A DNA stretch of 64,000 nt from Minisyncoccota bacterium (GTDB lineage Bacteria > Patescibacteriota > Minisyncoccia > UBA6257 > XYB1-36-10): the NCBI GenBank assembly GCA_041651415.1, contig JBAZJH010000003.1, forward strand, positions 15,309 to 79,308, written 5' to 3'. The notes beneath the pieces are model-generated. The model worked only from the letters and a program-made list of their open reading frames with translations, searched no databases and had not been told where the DNA came from. Both the position numbers and the translations under genes were made by a program. Positions 2,566-63,437 of this stretch are shown here, piece after piece. Every line of letters begins with the position of its first letter. Positions within the stretch are counted from its first letter, which is position 1.

Positions 2566-2689
2566 AATGGAAATATAATAACACAAAAAGTTGAAAGTTC
2601 GTAAAGTTTACAAAGTTAGGAAGCAAAAAAAAGATAAATTTGGTATAATAAAAAAAGCAAGAAAAAAGATTTTATAGGAGGAAGAAAAA

Positions 2690-6026: not shown

Positions 6027-7073
6027 TTAAAGAGTGATATCTTTGGGGCGAAGAGGATTATCCAAAATATAACTTAATTTTTCATAGTTTTCAACAACAG
6101 AACCAATGCCGCGAATGGCGCAAGTCAGAGGCTCATCAACAACATAAGTCGAGATGCTGGTTTCTTTTTCTATCAATTCTCCCATACCGCGAAGAAGAGC
6201 GCTGCCGCCGGAAAGATAAATCCCCTGCTTTAACATATCGCCGACAAGCTCAGGCGGAGCCGATTCGATTATTTCGCGAACGGATTCAACGATGATTTTA
6301 ATCGGCTTTAAGATGGCAGAACGAGCATGAGTGCCGCGGACAATCACTTCGCGCGGCAAGCCGGAAGAAATATCGCGGCCGCGAACATTCATTTCCAGTT
6401 TTTCCCCGCCGGCGATAACGCCGGCGATATTTATTTTAATGTCTTCAGCGGTAGCTTCGCCGATAATAAGCTTAAATTCGTCTTTGACAAATTTAGAAAT
6501 TTCCTGATTGAGTTCATCGCCGGCAATTTTGAGACTTCTTGATATAACAATTCCACCCATAGAAATAATGGCGATTTCAGTCAGGCCGCCACCGATATCG
6601 ACGATAAGGTTGGAAGTCGGGTCTTCAATAGGAAGATTGGCGCCAAGAGCGGCGGCAATAGGCTCTTCGATGAGATGGGCATGACCGCCGCCCGCGCCGA
6701 TAACGGCATCCTCCACGGATTTTCTCTCAACTTCAGTCAAGTTGCTTGGAATACCGATAACAACTTTTTGAAAATTAAGGAGATTGGAATTATTAACCTT
6801 GCGCAAAAGAATTTTAAGCATTTCTTGAGTCATTTCAAAATCGGAAATAACGCCGCTTTTTAAGGGATGAATCACATCAATATGGAGAGGAGTGCGGCCA
6901 AGCATTTTTTTGGCTTCTTCGCCAACCGAAAGAATCTGCCCGGATTTGGAGTTGACGGCGGCGATACAAGGTTCGTTTACAACAATTCCCCTGCCTTTCG
7001 CATAAACCAAGACATTCGAAGTGCCAAGGTCAATGCCGATATCTTTGCCAAAAAATTTAAAAGGATTAAACAA
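6027..7073 (-). CDS. mreB: rod shape-determining protein MreB (actin-like)
   Basis: IGIDLGTSNVLVY, DIGGG, actin-fold phosphate motifs; TTG start. Confidence 0.9.
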   Translation of the reverse strand: MFNPFKFFGKDIGIDLGTSNVLVYAKGRGIVVNEPCIAAVNSKSGQILSVGEEAKKMLGRTPLHIDVIHPLKSGVISDFEMTQEMLKILLRKVNNSNLLNFQKVVIGIPSNLTEVERKSVEDAVIGAGGGHAHLIEEPIAAALGANLPIEDPTSNLIVDIGGGLTEIAIISMGGIVISRSLKIAGDELNQEISKFVKDEFKLIIGEATAEDIKINIAGVIAGGEKLEMNVRGRDISSGLPREVIVRGTHARSAILKPIKIIVESVREIIESAPPELVGDMLKQGIYLSGGSALLRGMGELIEKETSISTYVVDEPLTCAIRGIGSVVENYEKLSYILDNPLRPKDITL

Positions 7074-7341
7074 GAAAGTTAAAAGTTAAAAGTTTATAAA
7101 GTTGAAAAAATGGCTAATCCCGATTAAAAATAAATTTTTAACGGGACAAGTTAAGAATTTCTAATTAATGATTTAATAAAGAACCCTGGATTCTCGCATT
7201 CGCGAGAATGACAAAAGTTATCTAAACAGAGCAGGCCCTACAGGAATAGCCGTAAGCGAATTTCATAGGGCAAGCAAATTATAGTCCACGAGGGAATAAA
7301 AGTTCAAATATAAAGGGAAAAAAGAGAAAAAAGGAAAGATG

Positions 7342-11135: not shown

Positions 11136-12143
11136 TTATCTTTTATTCAGGAGAGTCCTCTTATAAATATCCAAGTGGCTCAAAATAATTCCAGTGCCTT
11201 TAGCCACGCAATAAAGCGGCTCTTCCGCTTGATAAGTCGGAACGCCCAAAATTCTTTCGAAAAATTCATCAAGATTACGCAGGAGAGCACCGCCGCCCGA
11301 GAGAATAATTCCTTTATCCATAATATCGGCAACGAGCTCCGGCGGAGTGTTGTTAAAAACGCTTTGAACAGCGGAAGCAATGTCGTTTAAAAAATGCCCG
11401 AGAGCTTCAGCCATTTCGTTCGAGGTGACGATAAGATCTTTCGGCAAGCCGGAAATAAGGTCAAGGCCGCGAAGATTAAATTCCAATTTGTCTTTCAAGG
11501 GAAGAGCCGAGCCGATGGAAATTTTTACGTTTTCCGCCATTTGTTCGCCGATAGACAATGAATGCTTCTTTTTAATGTAGTCAATTATGGATTGGTCAAA
11601 TTTATTGCCGGCAACGCGGAGAGATTCCCAAGCAACGATGCCGCCCAAAGAAACAACGGCGACTTCGGCGGTGCCGCCGCCGATATTAACAATCATATTA
11701 CCGCAGTGAGAATTAATAGGAATGCCGGCGCCGAGAGCCGCCAAAATCGGTTCGCGGACAATAAAGACTTCTTTGGCGCCAGCTTCTTTCGCCGCATTCA
11801 TAACTGCGCGGCGCTCAGTCGGAGTGATGCCAGCCGGAACGGAAATAACAACTTCGGGGCGGATAACGTTAAAACGGCCGACAGCTTTATTGATAAAATA
11901 AGAAAGCATCGCTTTCGTAATGTAATAGTCGGCAATGACGCCGTCTTTTAAGGGGCGGTAAGAAATAATGTCTTCGGGAGTGCGGCCAAGCATTTCTTTA
12001 GCTTCACGGCCGACAGCCAAAACTTTATTTTCCGGTTTAGTAAGCGCAACGATAGTCGGTTCATTGATAATAAATCCCCGTCCCGGAACGAAGACGATAG
12101 TATTAGCAGTGCCAAGGTCGATGCCTATTTTTTTAGTGAACAT
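11136..12143 (-). CDS. MreB/Mbl actin-like paralog
   Basis: IGIDLGTANTIVF, NIGGGTAEV motifs; second MreB homolog in window. Confidence 0.85.
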   Translation of the reverse strand: MFTKKIGIDLGTANTIVFVPGRGFIINEPTIVALTKPENKVLAVGREAKEMLGRTPEDIISYRPLKDGVIADYYITKAMLSYFINKAVGRFNVIRPEVVISVPAGITPTERRAVMNAAKEAGAKEVFIVREPILAALGAGIPINSHCGNMIVNIGGGTAEVAVVSLGGIVAWESLRVAGNKFDQSIIDYIKKKHSLSIGEQMAENVKISIGSALPLKDKLEFNLRGLDLISGLPKDLIVTSNEMAEALGHFLNDIASAVQSVFNNTPPELVADIMDKGIILSGGGALLRNLDEFFERILGVPTYQAEEPLYCVAKGTGIILSHLDIYKRTLLNKR

Positions 12144-12240
12144 GATATTAAGTTAAAAGTTCATAAAGTTTGTAAAGTTTGTAAAGTTAAAAGTTCGTAA
12201 AGTTGAAAGTTCGTAAAGTTTGCAAGGTTAAAAGTTTAAA
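12144..12240. repeat. phased AAAGTT/AACTTT decamer array immediately upstream of mreB-paralog start
   Basis: gtaaagtttgtaaagtttgtaaagttaaaagttcgtaaagttgaaagttcgtaaagttt: about 10 units at about 10-nt period ending 5 nt before ATG; related arrays at 2591-2626, 7071-7108, 25515-25600, 26615-26645, 27508-27590 and a palindromic copy inside 23S at 60815-60895. Confidence 0.6.
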
Positions 12241-19402: not shown

Positions 19403-20965
19403 TTATTTTTCAAAAGAGACGTTAATTTTTTCGGAATTTTCCGGAACTTTATCAACCCAGAAAGGCCAAAAAGAAATGCGAGCATTTTCCACACCGACAG
19501 TGGAGATTATTTCCGCTTTCAGTTCGGAAGAATTTTTTCCCTTTATGCCATTTTTAAATTCATCAATATTTAAATCCCTTTGAGCCAAGCCGGAAGCGGA
19601 CGGTAGGAAGGTCATTTTTCCCGTTTCAAAATCAATTTTTACATCTTTTGGATTGAGAGCATATTCGAGAAGATTCACCTTAAACCCAAGGTTTTCAGAG
19701 ATTTCTTTCACCAAAAATTCTTCCAGCTGTTTTTTGGAAAAAGCCAGAACTTTCTTTTCCACTTCTCCATAGACCGAAAACTCTCCTTTTTCATTTGTTT
19801 CTTCTTTTACTTCCGTTTTAACTATTTTAAAACTGTCGGAACCGTCAATGGCTGTAAAATCTTCAGGAATGTTTAAAGAAGAAGCTAAGCTGTCTTTCAG
19901 AGTTTGCTCAATTTTAGTAATAGCTTCCTTTTTATCAGCGTCTGTCGGAAAAGCGGCAACGCCAATAAAACCACCTGTGGCCGGTTCTTTTGATTCGCCG
20001 TAAAAACTTTCATATTTGGAAGAACCCTGAAATCCGGGAATGGAAAATCTGGAAATCGGACCGATATTATATTCTTCTCCCGCCTTGTCGGCAATTATTT
20101 CCGCTTCTATGGAAGAAGGAATAATTTTCCCTTGTTCGATTTTAGCGCCCGGGACTGTTATTTTATTTACCAAGCGAAAAAGTTTTCCATCCGGAGCAAG
20201 AAGACGAGTGGAAGCAACCAGAATTTGACTTTGTGAACTATAAGCGTTGTAAATAATAACTTTACCTTTAGCTTTTCTTTCTATTTTTTTACTGCCGGAA
20301 GCGGGAAAGTTAAGAGTAATGTTTTTTCTTTCGGTAAAAAGCTCTCCACCAATAACAGATTTTTCAAGGTCAATATCGGAAGAATCGGTTTCGACAGACA
20401 AAGAATTTTTGCTTTCAAACGGATATTCTTTAAGAGTGAAAGCGATAGTGGCTTTCGGAGAAACGTTTTCAACCCCAACCCAGATAAGAGCGATCAAAAC
20501 CAAAGCGCCAATAAAAAAATAAGCTTTCTTTTTGGAAAATTTGCCTGTTTTTCTATTGAAACCTTTTTCGGTAAAATCAACAGTCACATCACTATTTTCT
20601 TCCGGAATAGTTTCTTCTTCCAGACGAGCTTCTTCTTTTTTCAGGGAAGAAGGAGCGCTTCCAGCTAAAGAAATTTCAGGAGCGATGATGTCGGACATGC
20701 TTTTTCTTCTTCCGGAAAGAAACGGATTTAAAGAAGCAATGCCGGCGGCTTGAGCCAAAGCCAAAACCTCTTCATCAACGGATTCAATAACAAGATTTTT
20801 ATTGTCGGCATCCGCCTCTCTCTTAATCAAGTGAAAGTTGGAAACTGAGCCGGCAAGTTTGGAAGATTTAGGAAGAACTATTACTAAGTCCTTTTCTTTT
20901 TCCCCCAAGATATTTTCCACAACGAAGGCCGGGTCGTCGTTTTTGCCAATAAATATTTTTTTCAT
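19403..20965 (-). CDS. hypothetical bitopic membrane protein (150-aa cytoplasmic N-domain, one TM, large extracytoplasmic domain)
   Basis: TM segment YFFIGALVLIALIWVGV; last gene of a 4-gene minus-strand cluster starting with a sigma factor. Confidence 0.5.
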   Translation of the reverse strand: MKKIFIGKNDDPAFVVENILGEKEKDLVIVLPKSSKLAGSVSNFHLIKREADADNKNLVIESVDEEVLALAQAAGIASLNPFLSGRRKSMSDIIAPEISLAGSAPSSLKKEEARLEEETIPEENSDVTVDFTEKGFNRKTGKFSKKKAYFFIGALVLIALIWVGVENVSPKATIAFTLKEYPFESKNSLSVETDSSDIDLEKSVIGGELFTERKNITLNFPASGSKKIERKAKGKVIIYNAYSSQSQILVASTRLLAPDGKLFRLVNKITVPGAKIEQGKIIPSSIEAEIIADKAGEEYNIGPISRFSIPGFQGSSKYESFYGESKEPATGGFIGVAAFPTDADKKEAITKIEQTLKDSLASSLNIPEDFTAIDGSDSFKIVKTEVKEETNEKGEFSVYGEVEKKVLAFSKKQLEEFLVKEISENLGFKVNLLEYALNPKDVKIDFETGKMTFLPSASGLAQRDLNIDEFKNGIKGKNSSELKAEIISTVGVENARISFWPFWVDKVPENSEKINVSFEK

Positions 20966-21007
20966 GCTTTTTCCAATAAATAAATTATACCAGTTTTTTC
21001 AAAAAAA

Positions 21008-22270
21008 TTAAGGGATCAGCCATTTGGCGCGGCGACGGGCCATTTTATTAAGCTGGTCTTCATGGCTAGAGAAATAATATTCCAAGAATCCGGAAATAGA
21101 GGAAAAAACCGACTCAATTTCCAATCCGGAAACTTCAGAAGAAACAGAAAAACCCAGTTTTTCGATTATTTTTAAAATATCCGGCTTTTCCAGTCTAGGC
21201 TTGTTTTTTTTGTCAAAAATAAAATCAGGAATATTTTTTTCATCCAAAACAAATATCCGGCTTTCTTTCTCAAGCTTTCCTTTAGAATATATTTTTTTGA
21301 AAAAAACATCCCACTCTTCAAGAAGAGAATCCTTGACAAATTTTTCAATTTTACCGGAAGAACTTTTTCCGGAAACAAGATTAATTACTTTAAAAGAAGT
21401 TTCATTATCAAGATTGAGCTTTTTACCAAGGCAAGAAGAAAGAAAAGAAGAATCCCATTCCAAACAACTTTCTTCTTTTAAAACAGGCAAAGAAATATCT
21501 TCCCGGCTGAGATTTTTGTAAAAGCTTTTTAAAATAAGAACAGATTCAGGAAAAAATCTCAATAAGGAAAAAGAGTTTTCAAAATTGAAAGAACGAAGAA
21601 TCGTTTCGGAATCAATCAGGCCAAGTTCAGAGATAAATTCTATTTTGAATTTTCTTCCGAGAGCTTCTTCAAGAGCTCGATAATAATCGCGATTAACAAA
21701 GGTTTCTTCTATTAAAAACTCAACAGTCTTAGCTTTAAAACCGATAGGATTCAAAACTTTGTGGCCATTTACTTTAACGCTCAAATTTCTGATGCCAGAA
21801 AGAAGAATATCGGATTCGCCGATACCGAGAAGATTAACCGCCTGCGGACGAAAAAGATTAAGAAATTTCCAAACCGCTTGAGAAATAAGATTTTCGATTT
21901 CTCCTTCGTTTATTTCTTCTTTATGATTCATTCTATCCACCCGCACCCAAGCCGGAACAGTGTAAACAAAGGAAGAAGCGCCAACGATGATAATTTTGCT
22001 GCCAGAAGGAATATTTGTTTCTTTTAAAAAATTTTTAACCGATTCAATGCTTATTTTTTTTTCCAAGCCCTCACCGGATAAATCCGAGTTTTTAAGAAGA
22101 CGGCTTGAAGAAGAAATTATATTTATTTTGTTTTCGGAAACTTCGAAAAAAGAACCGCGCAAAAAAGAATTGCCTATTTCAAGACAAAAGAACCTTTCCG
22201 TATTTTCTCCGGATAATATTTTTTTAAAATTTAAAGCCATTAGTCGGAATGCCTTTAAATGATTATACAA
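21008..22270 (-). CDS. PilM/FtsA-like actin-fold protein (putative pilus assembly platform protein)
   Basis: N-terminal CLEIGNSFLRGSFFEV resembles PilM/FtsA phosphate-1 motif (GLDIGSSSIK..); family assignment tentative. Confidence 0.4.
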   Translation of the reverse strand: MYNHLKAFRLMALNFKKILSGENTERFFCLEIGNSFLRGSFFEVSENKINIISSSSRLLKNSDLSGEGLEKKISIESVKNFLKETNIPSGSKIIIVGASSFVYTVPAWVRVDRMNHKEEINEGEIENLISQAVWKFLNLFRPQAVNLLGIGESDILLSGIRNLSVKVNGHKVLNPIGFKAKTVEFLIEETFVNRDYYRALEEALGRKFKIEFISELGLIDSETILRSFNFENSFSLLRFFPESVLILKSFYKNLSREDISLPVLKEESCLEWDSSFLSSCLGKKLNLDNETSFKVINLVSGKSSSGKIEKFVKDSLLEEWDVFFKKIYSKGKLEKESRIFVLDEKNIPDFIFDKKNKPRLEKPDILKIIEKLGFSVSSEVSGLEIESVFSSISGFLEYYFSSHEDQLNKMARRRAKWLIP

Positions 22271-24482: not shown

Positions 24483-25514
24483 TTAAAGTTTTTTGGAATA
24501 AACTTTAAGATTTTTGAAACGAGGAGAATTAAATTCTTTCAAAGAAAGAAGACCAGCTTTCGCGCCTAAAGATTCAACAACGGAAGTGGCGTTAGTCGAA
24601 CCGAGACGAATGGCAAATTCAATATTTTCTTGGCCGCAAATTCTTTTTTGGCAGTTTTCTTTCGATTTGATAAGGCCGGCGACAAAACCGGAGCCGAAAG
24701 CATCGCCCGCGCCGGTGCGGTCTTCTATTTTTTTATTTTTAAAGATGCCAGCACGCCAGAGAGTTTTGCCATCGGAAACCATCACTCCTTTTTGCCCTTC
24801 CGTCATAACAGCCAAGCCGCCGATAAGGGCATCAAATTTTTTAAAAATCCCCTTTTCGTTTTTGTAAGGAACTCCGGTTAAGAGACTGGCTTCTTCGCGA
24901 TTTAAAATAACAACAGCCATTTTTTGAAACAGCGGCTTTAATTTTTTAGAACCGAGAGCGAGAAGATTTTTAGAAGGATTAATGGCAAGCTTGGTTCCCT
25001 TTTTTTTCAGTTCTTCGGTTAAAGAAAGAAGAAAAGGAAAAGGAAAATTGCCGGGAGAAAGATAAGCCCAGGCAGGGCGGAAGCCATTTTCAGAAAAAGA
25101 GTTTTTGGGAAAATTTGGATTATTAGAACGAGAAACCAAAATGACGCGGCTGCCATTTTTGGAAATAAGAATTAAAGAGCGGTCAGTTCCCTCTTTTTCC
25201 ATTTTTACCGGAAAAGGAATGACATTTTCTTTTTCCAAATCTTTCAAAACAAACTGACCGAAGAGGTCAGAGCCGATTTTAAAAAAAGACGAAGTTTTGA
25301 AGCCGAGGCGAGCAAAAGAAACAGCGGCGTTCGTTGCTCCCCCGCCGGAAAAAATGGCGGAAACGGCGCCGATTTTATCGCCAAGAGAAAAACAAAGCTT
25401 GCCTTCTCCTTCCGATTTATCAGGCAAAATTCCGGTCTTAAAAAAAATATCAACGGTGGCTGTGCCAACGGTTAAAATATCTTGATTGCTAAAATTTAAG
25501 AAATTCCAGGACAT
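24483..25514 (-). CDS. PfkB-family carbohydrate/nucleoside kinase (ribokinase-like)
   Basis: GGGATNAAVSFARLG and GAGDAFGSGFVAGL signature motifs. Confidence 0.8.
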   Translation of the reverse strand: MSWNFLNFSNQDILTVGTATVDIFFKTGILPDKSEGEGKLCFSLGDKIGAVSAIFSGGGATNAAVSFARLGFKTSSFFKIGSDLFGQFVLKDLEKENVIPFPVKMEKEGTDRSLILISKNGSRVILVSRSNNPNFPKNSFSENGFRPAWAYLSPGNFPFPFLLSLTEELKKKGTKLAINPSKNLLALGSKKLKPLFQKMAVVILNREEASLLTGVPYKNEKGIFKKFDALIGGLAVMTEGQKGVMVSDGKTLWRAGIFKNKKIEDRTGAGDAFGSGFVAGLIKSKENCQKRICGQENIEFAIRLGSTNATSVVESLGAKAGLLSLKEFNSPRFKNLKVYSKKL

Positions 25515-25615
25515 GAAATAAAGTTAAAAGTTAATAAAGTTTTTAAAGTTGAAAGTTTATAAAGTTCATAAAGTTAAAAGTAACAAATTTAAAAAAGTTA
25601 AAAGCAGAGAAAAAA

Positions 25616-26611: not shown

Positions 26612-26652
26612 GAATCAGTTAAAAGTTTATAAAGTTAAAAGCAGAGAAAAAA

Positions 26653-27507: not shown

Positions 27508-27713
27508 GAAAGAAAGTTAAAAGTTAATAAAGTTTGTAAAGTTGAAAGTTTATAAAGTTCATAAAGTTAAAAGTAAAAATAACAAATTCCAAATAAATTA
27601 CAGCATTAAATTACTAATATTAAAAAGATAAACTCATTGTTTATTTTACAACAAATGGAGAAAATTTAGTATGTGAATAAAAAAATCCGACGCAAGGATA
27701 AGAAAAAAATATT

Positions 27714-30656: not shown

Positions 30657-31253
30657 TTATATATCCAAACCTGGGTCAGTGCCAAGCTCATAAGTAGTGG
30701 CTGAACTTCCTCCGTCTTCCGCATCATAATCCTCGGTTGTGAGATACTTAGTACTTTCAAAGACAGTGTCGAGTTCGAAAGTTTTGTTAGTGTTATCACA
30801 GGCGTAAGAGTAAAAATAGGTGGATGTGTTAGTCGGGTCAATAGGAAGAACGGCAAGAGGAGCGCCGCCGGGAATATCGGCAAAATCGACTGGAACCCAA
30901 CCATTAGCATCAACTTCGCGAGTGGCGTCGATGGTAGTGGTTTTTCCGGTATGCCGGCTATCACAATTAGCAGCCACACCTGTTGTAGCCGTATAACAAA
31001 GAGTGGAACAAGAATCTGTGCCACCATCAAGGTCGGGAGCACTGACATTCGTGACGTAAAGGCTTAAAGCCTCGTTTAAGGTGGAGAGGTCAGAAATTCT
31101 AGTAGAATCTCTAGCTTGTTTTAAAAGTTCAGCAGGATTCAAAACCAGAGTAGCAGCGGTGGTTAATACCGCCAGGACACCAATAACAATAAGAAGTTCC
31201 ATCAAAGTGAAACCTTTGCTTTCTTTTATCTTGCTAAATAAATTCTTAAACAT
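30657..31253 (-). CDS. type IV pilin-like protein (paralog B)
   Basis: Same leader/helix (nt-identical for about 210 nt with paralog C); distinct central region. Confidence 0.8.
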   Translation of the reverse strand: MFKNLFSKIKESKGFTLMELLIVIGVLAVLTTAATLVLNPAELLKQARDSTRISDLSTLNEALSLYVTNVSAPDLDGGTDSCSTLCYTATTGVAANCDSRHTGKTTTIDATREVDANGWVPVDFADIPGGAPLAVLPIDPTNTSTYFYSYACDNTNKTFELDTVFESTKYLTTEDYDAEDGGSSATTYELGTDPGLDI

Positions 31254-31298: not shown

Positions 31299-31889
31299 TT
31301 AGATATCTAACCCCGGCTCGGAACCCACTTCATAAGTAGTAGCTGAACTTCCTCCGTCTTCCGCATCATAATCCTCGGTCGTGAGATATTTAGTGCTTTC
31401 AAAAACAGTGTCAAGTTCGTAAGTTTTGTTAGTGTTATCACAGGCGTAAGAATAAAAATATGAAGTCGTATTGGAAGGATCGATAGGAAGAACAGCAAGA
31501 GGAGCGCCGCCGGGAATGTCAGTGAAATCGACCGGAATCCAGCCATTACCATCCACTTCGCGAGTAGTGTCAACTAAAGAAGCTCCAACATGCCTTCCGC
31601 CACAGTTAGCGGCAATGCCAGCAATATGGACAAAACAACTAACAGAACAATCTTGCGCGCCATCCATATCAGGAGAAGAAACATTCGTGACGTAAAGGCT
31701 TAAAGCCTCGTTTAAGGTGGAGAGGTCAGAAATTCTAGTAGAATCTCTAGCTTGTTTTAAAAGTTCAGCAGGATTCAAAACCAGAGTAGCAGCGGTGGTT
31801 AATACCGCCAGGACACCAATAACAATAAGAAGTTCCATCAAAGTGAAACCTTTGCTTTCTTTTATCTTGCTAAATAAATTCTTAAACAT
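31299..31889 (-). CDS. type IV pilin-like protein (paralog C)
   Basis: Same leader/helix; distinct central region; C-terminal block shared with B. Confidence 0.8.
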   Translation of the reverse strand: MFKNLFSKIKESKGFTLMELLIVIGVLAVLTTAATLVLNPAELLKQARDSTRISDLSTLNEALSLYVTNVSSPDMDGAQDCSVSCFVHIAGIAANCGGRHVGASLVDTTREVDGNGWIPVDFTDIPGGAPLAVLPIDPSNTTSYFYSYACDNTNKTYELDTVFESTKYLTTEDYDAEDGGSSATTYEVGSEPGLDI

Positions 31890-38342: not shown

Positions 38343-38414
38343 TGGGTGTGGGAGGGATCGGACCTCCGGCCTCTGTCTTATCAGGACAGCGTTCTACCAC
38401 TGAACTACACACCC
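38343..38414 (-). tRNA. tRNA-Ile(GAT)
   Basis: GGGTGTGTAGTTCAGTGGTAGAACGCTGTCCTGATAAGACAGAGGCCGGAGGTCCGATCCCTCCCACACCCA; anticodon GAT. Confidence 0.85.
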
Positions 38415-38686
38415 CTTTTGAATAGCCAAGGAAAATTATTATCAGTTATAACCTTATTGATAATATCTTTCCTTTTGTATTTTTTCAATTTATATTCAAA
38501 ACCTCTCGCTTGTCTTAACGATTCACACTCAAGAAAAGATTCTAAAACAAGAGGCCTGATATTCTTTGTTGACAGCACTCTTCCGGAAATATGGTCTTTA
38601 AATCTTCTTTCAATATTGTCAGTGCTTCCTATATAAAATCTTTTATTTTTTAAACTTCTTAATATATAAACACCGCTTTTCTTCAT
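38405..38686 (-). CDS. GIY-YIG domain nuclease (small, 93 aa)
   Basis: GVYILRSLKNKRFYIGSTDNIERRFKDH = GIY-YIG motif with catalytic Arg/Glu context; stop codon TAG lies inside tRNA-Ile acceptor/D-arm (GGGTGTGTAG). Confidence 0.7.
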   Translation of the reverse strand: MKKSGVYILRSLKNKRFYIGSTDNIERRFKDHISGRVLSTKNIRPLVLESFLECESLRQARGFEYKLKKYKRKDIINKVITDNNFPWLFKRGV

Positions 38687-46193: not shown

Positions 46194-46307
46194 AGATGTA
46201 AAAATATCAAATCACAAAAAACAAATTACAAATAAAGACGGATTTTGATTTTTTCGGATTTATTATCTATTATATCAAGAGCTAAGCTTTAAATAAAGAA
46301 GGAAGCC

Positions 46308-48648: not shown

Positions 48649-48692
48649 AAGATTAAGTTAATAGATAAAGATAGTTTTGTAAAGTTTTTAAA

Positions 48693-49139
48693 TTAGCCTA
48701 AGATTTCTTCCAGCTTTTTTTCCAAAGCTTCATTACTCAATGAAGAAACTTTTTCCGAAATTATCTCCGGTTCTTTTTCTTCTTTTTCCGGAGAAATTTC
48801 CGGTTTGATTCTTTTTTCTTCCGGAGCTTTTTCGCTTCTCTCTTTGTTCTCAATTTTGGCAAACGGCAAAACTATGAGAAAACGGAGAATTTCGCTCTTA
48901 AGATTAAGTTCTTTTGAAATGTTTAAAACATCGGCCGGAGCCACGGAAAAAATAAAGAAACCGAAGAAGGCTTCGCTATATTTTTTCACTTTGTAAGCCA
49001 AAGGTATTTTTTTAAGGATATTATCTTTTTTTTCTATCTCCGAACCATAGCGTTCCAAAACGGCAAAAATATCGGCAAGAGATTCTTCGCTTTTCAAGAG
49101 AAAAGATATTTCGTATTTTTTCTTAGTTATTTCTTCCAT
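48693..49139 (-). CDS. rpsF: 30S ribosomal protein S6 with acidic/Lys-rich C-terminal tail
   Basis: YEISFLLKSEE... S6 fold; rpsF-ssb-rpsR synteny. Confidence 0.85.
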   Translation of the reverse strand: MEEITKKKYEISFLLKSEESLADIFAVLERYGSEIEKKDNILKKIPLAYKVKKYSEAFFGFFIFSVAPADVLNISKELNLKSEILRFLIVLPFAKIENKERSEKAPEEKRIKPEISPEKEEKEPEIISEKVSSLSNEALEKKLEEILG

Positions 49140-58774: not shown

Positions 58775-58889
58775 ATGCCGGCAAAACCTACTTTCGCCCC
58801 GAAGGACTATCATCGGTTCCGCGCCGTTTCACTTCCGAGTTCGGAATGGATCGGGTGTTTCCAGCGCGAGTTAATCACCGGCAAACCAA
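58775..58889 (-). rRNA. rrf: 5S ribosomal RNA
   Basis: GGTTTGCCGGTGATTAACTCGCGCTGGAAACACCCGATCCATTCCGAACTCGGAAGTGAAACGGCGCGGAACCGATGATAG...GCCGGCAT; helix I pairing of ends, loop C/E consensus (CCGAAC, AGTGAAAC). Confidence 0.8.
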
Positions 58890-59335: not shown

Positions 59336-60078
59336 CATAAATTTTTTTCATTTATTACTAAATGGATCGGACTATACCATCACCCCGACCAAACTGTCGG
59401 GGGACTGACGTATTAGCATTCACTTGAACGCTCTGTTTTTAAAAACAAGTCTCTACGGGGTCAATGCACGTTCTTTTCTTCTTTTGGAATAATTAAGTTC
59501 GCGATAGCGATTAATAATTTTAAGAAGATTTTTGAAATCGTTAGCATTTTTAATTGTCTTTTTTCGCCGGATAATTTCAAGCATAAGATTTATTTGTTTC
59601 TTTTTTAAAACCGAATAAGGTTTTATCGCCTTTAGAAATTCTTGAATATCTTCGATTTTTCCTATAACACATTCGAGAATTCCATCAGAACGAATACGGA
59701 GTTTTCCGCATCCGACAAGAGAACAAATTTCTTCAAAGCTTTTTTGACATTTTTTTGATTGGAAAAAAACAACATAAAGCGCTATCTGAAAACCGTATCG
59801 ATAAGTTCGATTCGGCTTCGCTTGCGCATAAATGCTGCCATCACCATCAAGAAAACCAGCGATATAGGACTTTTTTATTTTGGATAACGATTTTAACATA
59901 CACGACTTCCCTCGGTATTATCCTAACATATGACAGGTTGAAAATCATATGAGGACTTCACCGATATGAGTCAGTTTATTCAGTCCACATTACTGTGGCT
60001 CCGATATTTTAATCGGAGTTCTGACTTTTAAAGTCAGAAAAAGCCGCCGTTTTTTTTATTACCTCGTGTTCAATTTTG
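59336..60078 (-). mobile_element. group I intron in 23S domain V at/near the I-CreI-type site (E. coli about 2593), carrying a LAGLIDADG ORF
   Basis: About 743-nt insertion between ...GGTTCAAACCGT and CGTGAGACAGGTTGG exon sequences; ends with G; contains HE ORF. Confidence 0.8.
59453..59899 (-). CDS. LAGLIDADG homing endonuclease (intron-encoded)
   Basis: IAGFLDGDGSIYAQ LAGLIDADG motif; single-motif about 148 aa (I-CreI-like homodimer type). Confidence 0.85.
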   Translation of the reverse strand: MLKSLSKIKKSYIAGFLDGDGSIYAQAKPNRTYRYGFQIALYVVFFQSKKCQKSFEEICSLVGCGKLRIRSDGILECVIGKIEDIQEFLKAIKPYSVLKKKQINLMLEIIRRKKTIKNANDFKNLLKIINRYRELNYSKRRKERALTP

Positions 60079-60241: not shown

Positions 60242-61582
60242 GCCGTTGTCTCCGACCTTCCTGTAAAGGTTCGTCGGGTCACTAAGTTCTGCTTTCGCAT
60301 CTGCTCGACTTGTAAGTCTTGCAGTTAAGCCGGCTTATGCCTTTACACATTAGGCTCGATTTCCATCCGAGCCAAGCCGACCTTTAAACTCCTCCGTTAC
60401 TTTTTAGGAGGATTCCGCCCCAGAAAAACTGCCCGCCAGACACTGTTCCAATAAAGTTTACCTTTCGGACTCTTTATCGGTTAGAACTTAAATCATTAAA
60501 GGGTGGTATCTCATTTGCGGCTCCACTCTGACCGAAATCAAAGTTTCAAAGCCTGCCACCTATGCTGCGCAGCAACAATTTAAGGCCAATATCAAGCTAC
60601 AGTAAAGCTCCCGGGGTCTTTTCGTCCCGCTGCAGGTATCCCGCGTCTTCACGGGAATCGCATTTTCACCGAGCTTCTCGCTGAGACAGTTCTCCAGTCG
60701 TTACACCTTTCGTGCGCTCCGGAACTTACCCGGAAAGGAATTGCGCTACCTTAGAACGATTATAGTTATCGCTGACATTGACGAGGGCTTCGGGCAGTCA
60801 GCACGCGCTGCGCGCAAGTTATAAAGTTTATAAAGTTGAAAGTTAAAAGTATTTGTTTTTACTTTTTGAACTTTATGAACTTTTTTCTTTATAAACTGCG
60901 TGCAACGCATACCGCCACCGTTAACCTTCTCGCATCGGTCAGGTGTCACCCCCTATACATCCACTTGCGTGTTAGCAGGGAGCTGTGTTTTTGGTAAACA
61001 GTCGCCAGAGAAACTTTAGCTGCGGGTCCGATAAAATCGGACCAGGCCTTATTGCGAACTTACGGCCGCTTTTTTGCCGAGTTCCTTAGCGAGAAATCAC
61101 TCGTTCTCCTTGGGCTCCTCGCCCTATCCACCTGTGTCGGTTTCCGGTACGGATACCTATAAATTAACCCTAGAGGCTTTTCTTGGAAGGCTCTTCAGCC
61201 AAATCGCCTTAGCCAAAGCTAAAGCTTTCGCCTTATTTTGAAGTTTCCATTAAAGGAAGACGCGCGCATTTGTCGCGAGCCGCTTCTTAAATATAGCAAC
61301 GCCAAACCATTAAGGCGTTTGACCTTATTTCCTCCGTCCCCCCGTTAGAATTTATAGGCAGGGCTGGAATATTAACCAGCTACCCATCGGCTGCGGCTTT
61401 CGCCATCGCCTTAGGACCGCCTAACCCGTGGATGATTGCCAGTGCCACGGAAACCTTGAATTTTCGGAGAGCCGATTTCCCATCGGCTTTGTGGTTACTC
61501 ATGCCAGCATTCTCTCTTCCATCCGCTCCACGAGCCCTCGCGGGTCTCGCTTCGGCGCAAATGGAATGCTCTCCTACCACCA

Positions 61583-61680: not shown

Positions 61681-63337
61681 TCCGCAACGTCGGTAGCTTA
61701 CTTAGCCCCGCACATTTTCGGCGCGCCTTGCCATTCGTCATAAAGGCGAATCGAATAGTGAGTTGTTACACACTCTTTAAAGGATGGCTACCTCTGAGCC
61801 CACCTCCTATCTGTCTATGGCACGACACTACCTCCTTTGCACTTAGTAAGCATTTAGGGACCTTAGTTGGCGGTCTGGGCTGTTTCCCTTTCGAACATGG
61901 AGCTTAGCCCCCACATTCTAACTCCCGAGCTATATTGTATGGTATTCGGAGTTTGATTAGTCTGGCGGAGTTTCCCCCTACTCAGACTATCCAGTGCTCT
62001 ACCCCCACACATAAACGCTCAAGGCTAGCCCTAAAGCTATTTCGGAGAGAACCAGCTATTACCGAGTTCGATTAGCTTTTCACTCCTTACCCCAGTTCAT
62101 CCGAAGATTTTGAACGGTCTACCGGTTCGGGCTTCCCTCCGATTTTCATCGGAGTTCACCCTGACCAGGGCAAGCTCACCCGGCTTCGGGTCTTATCCGG
62201 CTCCTCATACGCGCTATTAACGCTCGCTTTCACTACGCCTTCCTCCCGTAGGAGTTAGACAAAGGAGACAGATAAACTCGCTGGCTCATTCTTCAATAGG
62301 CACACGGTTACCCTTACGGGCTTCCGTTCCTTGTAAGCATAAGGTTTCAGATTCTATTTCATCGGCCTCACCGGCCTGCTTTTCACCTTTCCCTCACGGT
62401 ACTAGTTCGCTATCGGTCGCCAAGGATATTTAGCCTTACGAGACAGTTCTCGCAGATTCCCTCGAAGTGTTCATTTCTCGAGGTACTTAAGGATAAATAC
62501 GAAAAGTTTGTTTGTTTTCGCCTACGGGGCTTTCACCCTCTTTGGCGCGGCTTTCCAGCACGCTTCCGCTAACAAACAAATTTTTGACTTTTCTCCCAGC
62601 CAATAACTCTTCCATAAAAATTTTTAAAGAAGAGTTATTAGCTGAAAATGTACTTACCTTACAACCCTTAATTTTCAGCAAGCTGAAAATTCAGTTTAGG
62701 CTCTTCCCCGTTCGCTCGCCGCTACTAAGGGAATCATAGTTATTTTATCTTCCTCCGGGTACTGAGATGTTTCACTTCCCCGGGTGCGCTCTCCGACCGA
62801 AGTCAGAGTTGCAAGAGTTTATCTTGCAGGGTTTCCCCATTTGGAAATTCTCGGATCATAGGTTGCTACACACCTTCCCGAGACGTTTCGCCGCTACGCC
62901 GCGTCCTTCATCGCTCCTTGGTGCCAAGGCATCCACCTTACGCTCTTAATTCCGACCATCTCAATAATGAGATAGTTTTTGAACCCATTCCTATAAAATA
63001 GGCGAGGGTTCTTGATTAGAGAATGCTTTGCTTTTTATTTTACCTTCGCGCTCTTTTGGCGCGAAAGAATACCTGTTATTTTACTTAGCTTTTCAGTTGT
63101 AAACGTTCCGTCGAGGCATTCGTTAAACTTCCTTTTCTTTCAGCCTGGAATCTTTTTTAAAAAGAGCCCAGGCCGAGAGAAAAAGCGGATTCAATTTTAC
63201 TAAACTTTTTGCCTAAAAGCAAGGAGGGAAAAATAGAGATAAAAAAACCGCGTTTTACGCGGCTACAACAACCAAACACAGGACTTTTTTAGCCGCTTGT
63301 TTTTTGTTCTTTTTCCTTGATACTCATAAGCTTTTTT

Positions 63338-63367
63338 ATTGTAATATAGGCGAGCAATAAAAGTCAA
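63338..63367 (-). promoter_or_regulatory. candidate promoter of 23S-5S operon
   Basis: Minus-strand TTGACT-18 nt-TACAAT (TATATTACAAT) about 370 nt upstream of mature 23S 5' end. Confidence 0.4.
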
Positions 63368-63391
63368 TGGCGAAAAGGTGGAAAAATAAAA

Positions 63392-63426
63392 AACCGGTCT
63401 AGTTTGATTGGACCGGTTTTTTATTT
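63392..63426 (-). terminator. intrinsic terminator of upstream membrane-protein gene
   Basis: AACCGGTCCAATCAAACTAGACCGGTT hairpin followed by T-run on minus strand immediately after stop at 63438. Confidence 0.5.
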
Positions 63427-63437
63427 AAAAACGAGTG

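Follow-up and report, generated by a model that had tools for sequence, protein, structure and literature searches.

Tandem AACTTT arrays next to start codons in a Minisyncoccota genome, a probable lineage-specific class of heptamer-type simple-sequence repeats

The window, by which we mean the whole 64,000-nt stretch of contig JBAZJH010000003.1 (Minisyncoccota bacterium, assembly GCA_041651415.1) that was analysed, carries a set of tandem arrays built on a single hexamer (Table 1). The region flagged in the first-pass annotation, 12144-12240, consists of tandem AAAGTT on the plus strand. In the sense of the mRNA, which is that of the minus strand, the arrays consist of consecutive AACTTT hexamers and terminate immediately 5' of start codons. 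Tandem Repeats Finder (TRF) reports periods of 7, 9, and 16 nt for the flagged region and detects similar arrays at each of the other locations that had been proposed, and the motif itself identifies each of them as an AACTTT array in the sense of the minus-strand genes. Gene calls in the window are ORF-based. Judging from the names attached to the nearest transketolase homologs, the organism belongs to the class Paceibacteria of the Patescibacteria/CPR. The Pfam identities of the array genes, namely a GalT-like protein, two MreB proteins, a PfkB kinase, and the C and N subunits of transketolase, agree with those given to them beforehand. With regard to ssb, for which a weak array had been suggested, only a decayed remnant is observed. 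A further copy, in inverted-repeat form, is located in the 23S rRNA gene.

Table 1. Arrays with the AACTTT core in the window, with positions counted from its first nucleotide.
Feature	Coordinates	Strand	Units	Location
A1	2587..2617	(-)	4 AACTTT units (9, 9, 7)	5' of the galT-like gene, ORF 1558-2586
A2	7075..7103	(-)	4 units (9, 7, 7)	ends 1 nt 5' of the TTG start of mreB-1 (6027-7073)
A3	12149..12236	(-)	11 units	flagged locus; occupies most of the murA-mreB-2 spacer
A4	25520..25599	(-)	8-10 units	ends 5 nt 5' of the pfkB ATG 25514
A5	26616..26636	(-)	2 units and a degenerate unit (taactg)	41-nt tktN-tktC spacer
A6	27513..27574	(-)	8 units	ends 5 nt 5' of the tktN ATG 27507
Array remnant	48649..48695	(-)	one exact unit and degenerate units; decayed	5' of ssb
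A7	60803..60909	(-)		107-nt insertion in the 23S rRNA

The clustering of AAAGTT/AACTTT in the window is far beyond chance. Same-strand pairs of the hexamer were observed 10 times at a spacing of 7 nt and 20 times at a spacing of 9 nt, compared with 0.2 and 0.13 expected, respectively, from 200 second-order Markov simulations, in which the maxima were 2. The period of about 10 nt that had initially been described is not recovered, as no pairs occur at a spacing of 8 or 10 nt and the actual units are either 7 nt long, with the composition AACTTT+Y, or 9 nt long, with the composition AACTTT+AYR. Higher-order periods of 16 and 25 nt are also reported by TRF, the former being repeated 4.3 times in A3 and the latter 3.6 times in A4. 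The AACTTT core is near-invariant, with three mismatches in 174 interior positions when the anchors were allowed one mismatch, and the spacer positions between the cores are variable. The arrays contain only 3% G. They are direct repeats, as are the heptamer-class simple-sequence repeats (SSRs), with units of 7 and 9 nt and not of 7 nt alone. The arrays are recovered without a single base difference in an independent Logan assembly, the contigs of which break inside them. A search of Rfam at E<=10 with the flagged array returned no match. Mini-uORFs are opened by ATG spacers within three of the arrays.

Each of the six arrays that precede protein-coding genes (6/6) is intergenic, forward-oriented, near a start codon, and devoid of a Shine-Dalgarno (SD) motif in the spacer. 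The arrays had been described as ending 3-6 nt before the start. Their position near the start holds, but the distance from the last unit to the start codon actually ranges from 0 to 12 nt, with the exception of the galT-like gene, whose true start is probably the ATG at 2565, 21 nt downstream of A1. In A3, the last unit is degenerate and ends 5 nt 5' of the ATG at 12143. The TTG start of mreB-1 is considered real because the N-terminus of its product (MF...) matches those of its orthologs. Upstream of this gene, a promoter-like TTGAAC-18-TATAAT is present at 7307-7278, which, taken together with the TTG start, would place A2 inside a 5' UTR of approximately 200 nt. Another promoter-like site lies upstream of A1, at 2696-2669.

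With regard to translation initiation, the absence of an SD from the array genes was correctly noted in the first-pass annotation, but the clear AGGAGG that it attributed to the other genes is not found: SD-like motifs are present in 6 of the 60 ORF-called genes of the window. A TATAAT-like box is located 5-10 nt from the start in 12 of these 60 genes, a geometry that corresponds to leaderless transcripts; the arrangement TATAAT + 7 nt + ATG is found in the leaderless genes of the window and in front of tktN in relatives. The array leaders, which are 107-146 nt long, exhibit minimum free energies (MFEs) of -2 to -9 kcal/mol, that of the 134-nt murA-mreB leader containing A3 being -2.1 kcal/mol. 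None of these values is better than those of shuffled sequences, and z is >= -0.8 for the array-dominated leaders. A search by folding for a hidden partner arm of the mRNA arrays of the window found none. Between positions -60 and +30, the mean MFE is -5.4 kcal/mol for the six array genes versus -11.3 kcal/mol for the 54 other genes (Mann-Whitney p = 0.0017). The array genes are thus, as far as predicted folding is concerned, among those with the least structured initiation regions in the window. A TAAAAT block approximately 100 nt upstream of tktN is conserved in three relatives.

The arrays also contain, in mRNA sense, five exact copies of the 9-mer of the T7 gene 10 enhancer, TTAACTTTA, one copy of this 9-mer being located 4 nt from the ATG of pfkB. 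If the presence of the arrays is taken as given, the number of 9-mers exceeds chance only marginally (6 occurrences vs 1.9 expected). The T7 gene 10 epsilon/Enh element (UUAACUUUA; PMC8748333) resembles the arrays in this 9-mer, which they repeat five times, and in the unstructured, A/U-rich character of the upstream region. In contrast to the arrays, which are not accompanied by an SD, the T7 element is present in a single copy and aids a strong SD in E. coli. Its effect is probably mediated by S1 rather than by pairing with rRNA (PMC8748333). A pairing of the array unit with the 5' end of the 16S rRNA (AGAGUUUG) or with the segment equivalent to positions 458-466 of E. coli was considered on paper and was set aside, the pairing model being experimentally unsupported for T7 (PMC8748333). 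No 16S rRNA gene is present in the window, and the 23S rRNA gene is not linked to one.

The inverted-repeat hairpin that had been proposed within the 23S rRNA is confirmed by the predicted fold of A7, which reaches -43.5 kcal/mol (z = -8.4). The 107 nt of A7 replace a 12-nt apical loop at positions ~1891-1903 of the LSU model, just 5' of H69, in a helix that we take to be H68 based on the E. coli sequence. The insertion comprises a GC-rich stem extension capped by a (AAAGUU)n-loop-(AACUUU)n hairpin, of which the AAAGUU arm lies at ~60861-60890 and the AACUUU arm at 60816-60850. It forms an extra helix at the tip of a conserved helix, as do 23S intervening sequences and expansion segments, and it is also present in the ENA assembly. 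Among the fetched loci, no 23S genes were found with which the tip of H68 could be compared.

The upstream regions of orthologous genes in relatives, the comparison on which a conserved signal would depend, exhibit arrays that are either absent or reduced, and the arrays turn over rapidly. The closest syntenic relative, whose TktN shares 91% amino acid identity, has no array in the tktN, tktC, and pfkB spacers. In a relative at 79% identity, only a seed of one or two units, cactttcAACTTTtcttATG, is present where the window has the eight units of the tktN array, and a relative at 77% has a single spacer with three units. In more distant relatives, the ATG of tktN is preceded, at a distance of 7-8 nt, by TATAAT or TAGAAT. 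Among 80 CPR mreB orthologs fetched from metagenomes, a single one has an AAAGTT/AACTTT element upstream. Judging from these close relatives, which have the same genes without the arrays, the arrays are dispensable. Within the window itself, A4 and A6 share 71 of the 73 positions that end with the ATG, beyond which their sequences diverge at once, and the 5' flank of A4 is identical to that of A5. A6 is the likely source of the A4 copy because its flank is shared by the relatives. The identity between A4 and A6 and the seed observed in the relative together indicate that arrays have grown in place and have also been duplicated from one spacer to another of the same genome. The differences between species at the tkt spacers are consistent with a gain or loss of units; no copy-number polymorphism was seen, the available assemblies of the same population being identical.

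In order to describe the element beyond this genome, we used a scan with AACTTTNNNAACTTTNAACTTT of one genome per species, which gave at least 120 loci. The matches listed belong mostly to Bacteroidota, Ignavibacteria, and Chlorobiota, together with many lineages of Patescibacteria, these proportions being indicative only. The same unit recurs across phyla. Among the matches listed, the Y and AYR spacers are found again in the arrays of other genomes, and approximately 38% of the elements are two-armed, with AAAGTT on the 5' side and AACTTT on the 3' side in a ratio of 31:1 when the arms are identified by motif. Cryptic partner arms identified by folding contribute, among the same matches, a further 14:1 of the same polarity. 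The two-arm elements correspond to long AU hairpins, some of which lie between tRNA genes (locus L021). The orientation of the listed arrays is not fixed, as, in spacers between tandem genes, 31 are in the AACTTT sense and 26 in the AAAGTT sense, and 10 convergent and 9 divergent spacers are also represented. The stop codon of the preceding gene often marks the beginning of an AAAGTT array or even forms part of it. The outer ('head') end of the array adjoins a gene boundary in ~51 of the 112 single arrays among the matches listed, and the inner end in ~17. In some Bacteroidota, the array is subterminal in a discrete multicopy element of 130-150 nt, with conserved inverted termini (GAGTYCRGTYTAAAAAG...CTTTTTARACYGRACTC) and no target duplications visible at the ends of the element. 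Whereas the array genes of the window belong to the cytoskeleton and to sugar metabolism, the genes located downstream of start-adjoining arrays elsewhere are diverse and include those of an ABC ATPase, AtpA/G, NifU, PyrD, SecY, Nth, HU, ArgC, and TetR. Viral contigs yielded 24 hits in 2.9 million, and the hypothesis of a phage feature was rejected in view of these few hits. A full-text literature search with the array strings gave no match.

Period 7 is also favoured in CPR DNA at large. In a set of 530 kb, comprising the window and 84 loci, tandem repeats exhibit a sharp peak at this period, and periods 5, 6, 8, and 10 are rare. This set contains 45 period-7 arrays, 38 of which are intergenic, intergenic DNA representing ~9% of the total. 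The units vary from genome to genome (TTAGAAA, AATCCTA, AACCTAA, TTGAAAA, and others) and often adjoin the start of mreB.

The closest described counterparts are the TAACTGA heptamers of marine Beggiatoaceae, cyanobacteria, and five Bacteroidetes, which are mostly located a few nucleotides upstream of start codons (MacGregor 2015, PMC4679880). In the spacers that contain them, SDs are rare and no RNA structure is predicted; the repeats follow no functional pattern, are absent from the shorter spacers of close relatives, and break contigs, and S1, Csp, and CsrA have been put forward as candidate binders (PMC4679880). The AACTTT arrays share with them the forward-oriented position upstream of genes, the rarity of SDs, the lack of structure, the diversity of downstream functions, the absence from close relatives, and the contig breaks, and reverse-oriented and post-stop copies are likewise found in some species (PMC4679880). 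They differ in that they are composed of AACTTT and a spacer of 1 or 3 nt, in a mixture of 7- and 9-nt units, and not of a fixed heptamer, and in that their hosts are Patescibacteria and the Bacteroidota/Ignavibacteria group. In addition, inverted two-arm hairpins are frequent here, whereas a single inverted repeat was reported for BOGUAY (PMC4679880), and one array copy lies inside a 23S rRNA. Units of the AACTTT type are not mentioned in PMC4679880, and TAACTGA itself has a single occurrence, at the end of A5, the array unit being AACTTT(Y/AYR) otherwise. Based on this comparison of sequences, the AACTTT arrays are a distinct sequence family of start-codon heptamer repeats and the same sort of element as TAACTGA.

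According to the summary of Mrazek 2007 given in PMC4679880, heptanucleotide repeats are the commonest class of long SSRs, for which slippage was proposed. In Nostoc, heptamers are found within 30 nt of start codons and have modest effects (bioRxiv 10.1101/2022.06.06.494920). The arrays resemble both in their period of 7, their intergenic and start-near position, and their lineage specificity, and differ from both in their fixed hexamer core, their alternating 7- and 9-nt units, and the recurrence of their unit across phyla. As in the contingency loci of H. influenzae (hmw, 7 bp) and V. cholerae (ctxAB, TTTTGAT), where the number of heptads between promoter and start can grade expression, the repeats lie upstream of the start. 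In contrast, those loci concern surface and virulence functions with copy-number switching, whereas the genes concerned here are housekeeping genes.

Several other explanations of the arrays have to be weighed against these observations. The shared motif had been taken to suggest a regulon, and a cis-regulatory array recognised, as DNA or RNA, by one sequence-specific protein would have precedents in the heptad operators of ribbon-helix-helix repressors and in the repeated RNA sites of TRAP and HutP. An invariant hexamer core separated by variable spacers is what such a binder could require, spacers of 1 or 3 nt would suit the binding of a single strand, a given genome tends to employ one unit family repeatedly, at several loci, and the motif is common to several phyla; the authors of the TAACTGA and Nostoc studies also propose a putative binder. 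Nevertheless, the arrays are absent at the orthologous genes of close relatives, whether at those of the 91% relative or at 79 of the 80 mreB orthologs, the downstream functions are diverse, the number of units ranges from 2 to more than 20, the orientation varies, and the motif is found within a 23S rRNA and between tRNAs. The arrays do not constitute a conserved regulon signal, and we consider a regulon-forming binding array decidedly improbable. Promoter elements in the DNA, either as the curved, UP-element-like DNA with repeated -35 hexamers suggested in the first-pass annotation or as stacked TTTACA -35 and TAACTT -10 hexamers giving a leaderless transcript, appear more improbable still. 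The sequence TAACTT + 6 nt + ATG, present in A3, A4, and A6, is indeed similar to TATAAT + 7 nt + ATG, and TTTACA does occur within the 9-nt units. However, no sigma-70-like match is detected inside any array at the threshold of the tool, the candidates being located upstream of A1 and A2, and 15 nt separate the hexamers of the best TTTACA/TAACTT pairs. Curvature prediction indicates no bend: with a wedge model, the predicted path of the arrays is straight, with ratios of end-to-end distance to contour length of 0.97-0.99, compared with 0.57 for a phased A-tract control. The AA/TT dinucleotides exhibit no 10.5-nt signal, and the spacing of 7 and 9 nt does not match the helical phase of DNA. 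Moreover, TTG starts such as that of mreB-1 are poorly suited to leaderless initiation, and half of the arrays elsewhere, among the matches listed, face a stop codon or a convergent gene.

A platform for RNA processing seems just as improbable. AC↓UUU would be a site of the RNase E type (consensus RN↓WUU), and RNase III would act on the two-arm form; cleavage would separate cistrons, tRNAs, and rRNA pieces and leave mRNAs with very short leaders. The presence of the motif in intercistronic spacers, between tRNA genes (L021), and in the 23S rRNA, from which RNase III classically removes intervening sequences, is compatible with this role, but the correspondence is one of sequence resemblance, and the RNase E consensus accommodates any AU-rich RNA. 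A heptameric SSR of H. influenzae is described in PMC12721329 as acting together with a 5' UTR element targeted by RNase III. The arrays could also be remnants of a mobile palindromic element of the MITE or REPIN type, in which case the complete element would be the two-arm hairpin composed of an AAAGTT array, a loop, and an AACTTT array, the arrays of the window would be solo ends that were later expanded, and their proximity to genes would reflect the survival of insertions in short spacers only; this is unlikely, although it deserves more credit than the preceding explanations. Its main arguments are the strong polarity of the two arms (31:1 and 14:1 among the matches listed), the proximity of the head end to gene boundaries (~51 of 112, against ~17 for the inner end, among the same matches), the 130-150-nt copies with inverted termini in Bacteroidota, the copies in tRNA spacers and in the 23S rRNA, and the copying of A6 into A4. 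As REP, REPIN, and MITE sequences do, the elements are intergenic, adjoin gene ends, form hairpin pairs, and are multicopy, and in Bacteroidota they are discrete, with conserved inverted termini. In contrast to these sequences, their arms consist of a variable number of tandem 7- and 9-nt units, the window copies are one-armed, and no GTAG/CGTC tag, RAYT, transposase, or target duplication is associated with them. The mRNA arrays of the window have neither a partner arm nor terminal repeats nor target duplications, the tktN array resembles an in-place expansion of the seed of the relative, and the hits in viral contigs are few (24 in 2.9 million). Among the window genes covered by the Pfam scan, there is no transposase or RAYT gene, and no Csp or RRM gene either. 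An origin of the 7- and 9-nt units as footprints of transposon target duplication was also considered, and no evidence for it was found.

We consider it probable that the arrays are lineage-specific long SSRs of the heptamer class, made by slippage and conversion, which constitute structure-free, SD-independent leaders. The arrays would arise and change by replication slippage in steps of 7, 9, 16, and 25 nt, and ectopic copying between spacers would spread them. Their sites would be mRNA leaders and intercistronic spacers, and they lie directly against the start codon. As the organism rarely uses SD pairing, initiation would require no more than open, A/U-rich sequence 5' of the start, and G-poor, unfoldable arrays would be tolerated because SD-poor initiation needs such an open region. 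Where two arrays form a head-outward pair, with AAAGUU on the 5' side and AACUUU on the 3' side, they would fold into a long AU hairpin, and this two-arm form may be tolerated in structural RNA, here at the tip of helix 68 of the 23S rRNA. The arrays may have originated by slippage, may be transcribed as leaders, and may have a positive effect on translation, while their anatomy, non-randomness, lack of predicted structure, rapid turnover, copying within the genome, and recurrence across phyla are observed.

Among the functions initially put forward, the SD-independent leader or S1-binding platform is the one that survives, as the arrays are G-poor, predicted to be open, and without SD, even though relatives manage without them. 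It is conceivable that the arrays serve as a single-strand platform for an OB-fold protein such as S1, in the manner put forward for the T7 gene 10 enhancer, in which case the number of units would tune the length of the leader. Neutral slippage alone would not account for the same hexamer with Y/AYR spacers in distant phyla, for the favoured period of 7 in CPR, or for a core that is kept while the spacers drift. The conservation of the core and the cross-phylum unit, which resist an explanation by slippage, keep alive the hypothesis of a single-strand binder, S1 or Csp-like. In its strongest form, AACUUU(Y/AYR) arrays would be a natural substitute for the SD in SD-poor phyla: S1 or another OB-fold protein would recruit the ribosome, with approximately one domain per unit, or, in this organism, the complementary AAAGUU arm of H68 in the 23S rRNA would pair with the arrays transiently, and slippage in the number of units would act as an evolvable rheostat of expression. 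A conserved core with free spacers, the recurrence across phyla, and the adjacency to start codons are as expected for such a substitute. We regard this strong form as rather doubtful. The orientation is not fixed across taxa, and arrays are also found at convergent and post-stop sites, which argues against a single function at the RNA level.

Start-codon heptamer repeats have long been noticed in Beggiatoaceae and cyanobacteria. The AACTTT family with 7- and 9-nt units fills the same niche in the ultra-small genomes of CPR and in Bacteroidota, and the intergenic DNA of CPR exhibits a general, sharp peak of period-7 repeats. Between close relatives these arrays turn over, and within a genome they are copied from spacer to spacer. 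With regard to annotation, such arrays should not be read as regulon motifs, and they explain contig breaks in MAGs. The present results link the phenomenon of start-codon heptamer repeats to lineages that do not rely on SD pairing. The arrays of the window are real and, as far as can be judged from their sequence, may be tolerated or favoured as open, G-poor leaders.

Tandem repeats with a 7-nt period are sharply enriched between genes in Patescibacteria (CPR): in 530 kb of CPR DNA, comprising the window and 84 further loci (L147-L230), 38 intergenic arrays were found. The repeated unit is specific to each genome (TTAGAAA, AATCCTA, AACCTAA, TTGAAAA and TTTTCAT, among others), and both inverted pairs and abutment to a start codon are frequent, as in the CPR locus L184, which carries (AATCCTA)5-ATG. 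The window itself holds a separate array of this period, which lies 9-42 nt 5' of the start (46193) of a parA-like gene. A longer, 27-nt repeat, which contains repeated -10-like TATACAA/TATAAT motifs, is found between two large unannotated ORFs (19403-20965 and 21008-22270).

In Bacteroidota, an AACTTT array makes up the right arm of a palindromic element that is about 130-150 nt long, occurs in multiple copies and has conserved inverted termini, GAGTYCRGTYTAAAAAG...CTTTTTARACYGRACTC. This element was found at loci L026, L031 (two copies), L084, L094, L116, L117, L042, L089, L076 and L083; neither a target duplication nor a transposase was seen for it in this set of loci. AAAGTT/AACTTT hairpins also lie between two tRNA genes or directly adjoin tRNA genes in L021 (about 1150-1270), L019 and L079, which come from Falkowbacteria, Ignavibacteria and Bdellovibrionales MAGs. 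At L114, a seven-unit AAAGTT array stands directly against an ATG, on a contig from a MAG binned as a putative Micrarchaeia (DPANN) archaeon. Public short-read assemblies of the population studied here break at the array loci, and one ENA contig also stops near duplicated pilin-like genes (window about 31809).

Features of the window and of the array leaders
Feature	Position	Strand	Details
7-nt array upstream of parA-like gene	46202-46235		AAATAAC on plus strand; xATTTGT in mRNA sense
27-nt tandem repeat	20939-21008		2.6 copies; unit GTTTTTTCCAATAAATAAATTATACAA
Mini-uORF, mreB-2 leader (array A3)			MNF*; ends 9 nt before mreB-2 ATG
Mini-uORF, pfkB leader (array A4)			MNFINFQL*
Mini-uORF, tktN leader (array A6)			MNFINFQLYKLY*; ends 16 nt before tktN ATG
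LAGLIDADG homing-endonuclease-like ORF	59453-59899	minus	148 aa; PF00961; motif IAGFLDGDGS
Small GIY-YIG domain ORF	38405-38686	minus	
Duplicated pilin-like genes	30657-31253 and 31299-31889		N-termini identical

The rRNA operon is split, and the 23S gene has no 16S gene upstream of it (62959-63437); what precedes the 23S gene is an ORF for a membrane protein and, after it, a terminator-like hairpin. The LAGLIDADG ORF, one of the few window genes with a Shine-Dalgarno (SD)-like motif, sits between the 5S gene (58776-58882) and the 23S 3' end (60008). The GIY-YIG ORF, located inside a tRNA cluster, overlaps one of the tRNA genes (38343-38414) at its edge and may be a homing endonuclease remnant.

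Within the arrays of the mreB-2, pfkB and tktN leaders, ATG-containing spacers open mini-uORFs (at 12122-12134 and 25486-25513, among other positions). Over all window genes, an SD-like motif is present in only six of 60, and 12 of the 60 exhibit a TATAAT-like hexamer 5-10 nt 5' of the start codon. The arrangement 'cgcctataat', 7 nt and ATG is seen in many CPR mreB orthologs. The position of the TATAAT-like hexamers near the starts suggests that leaderless mRNAs are widespread.
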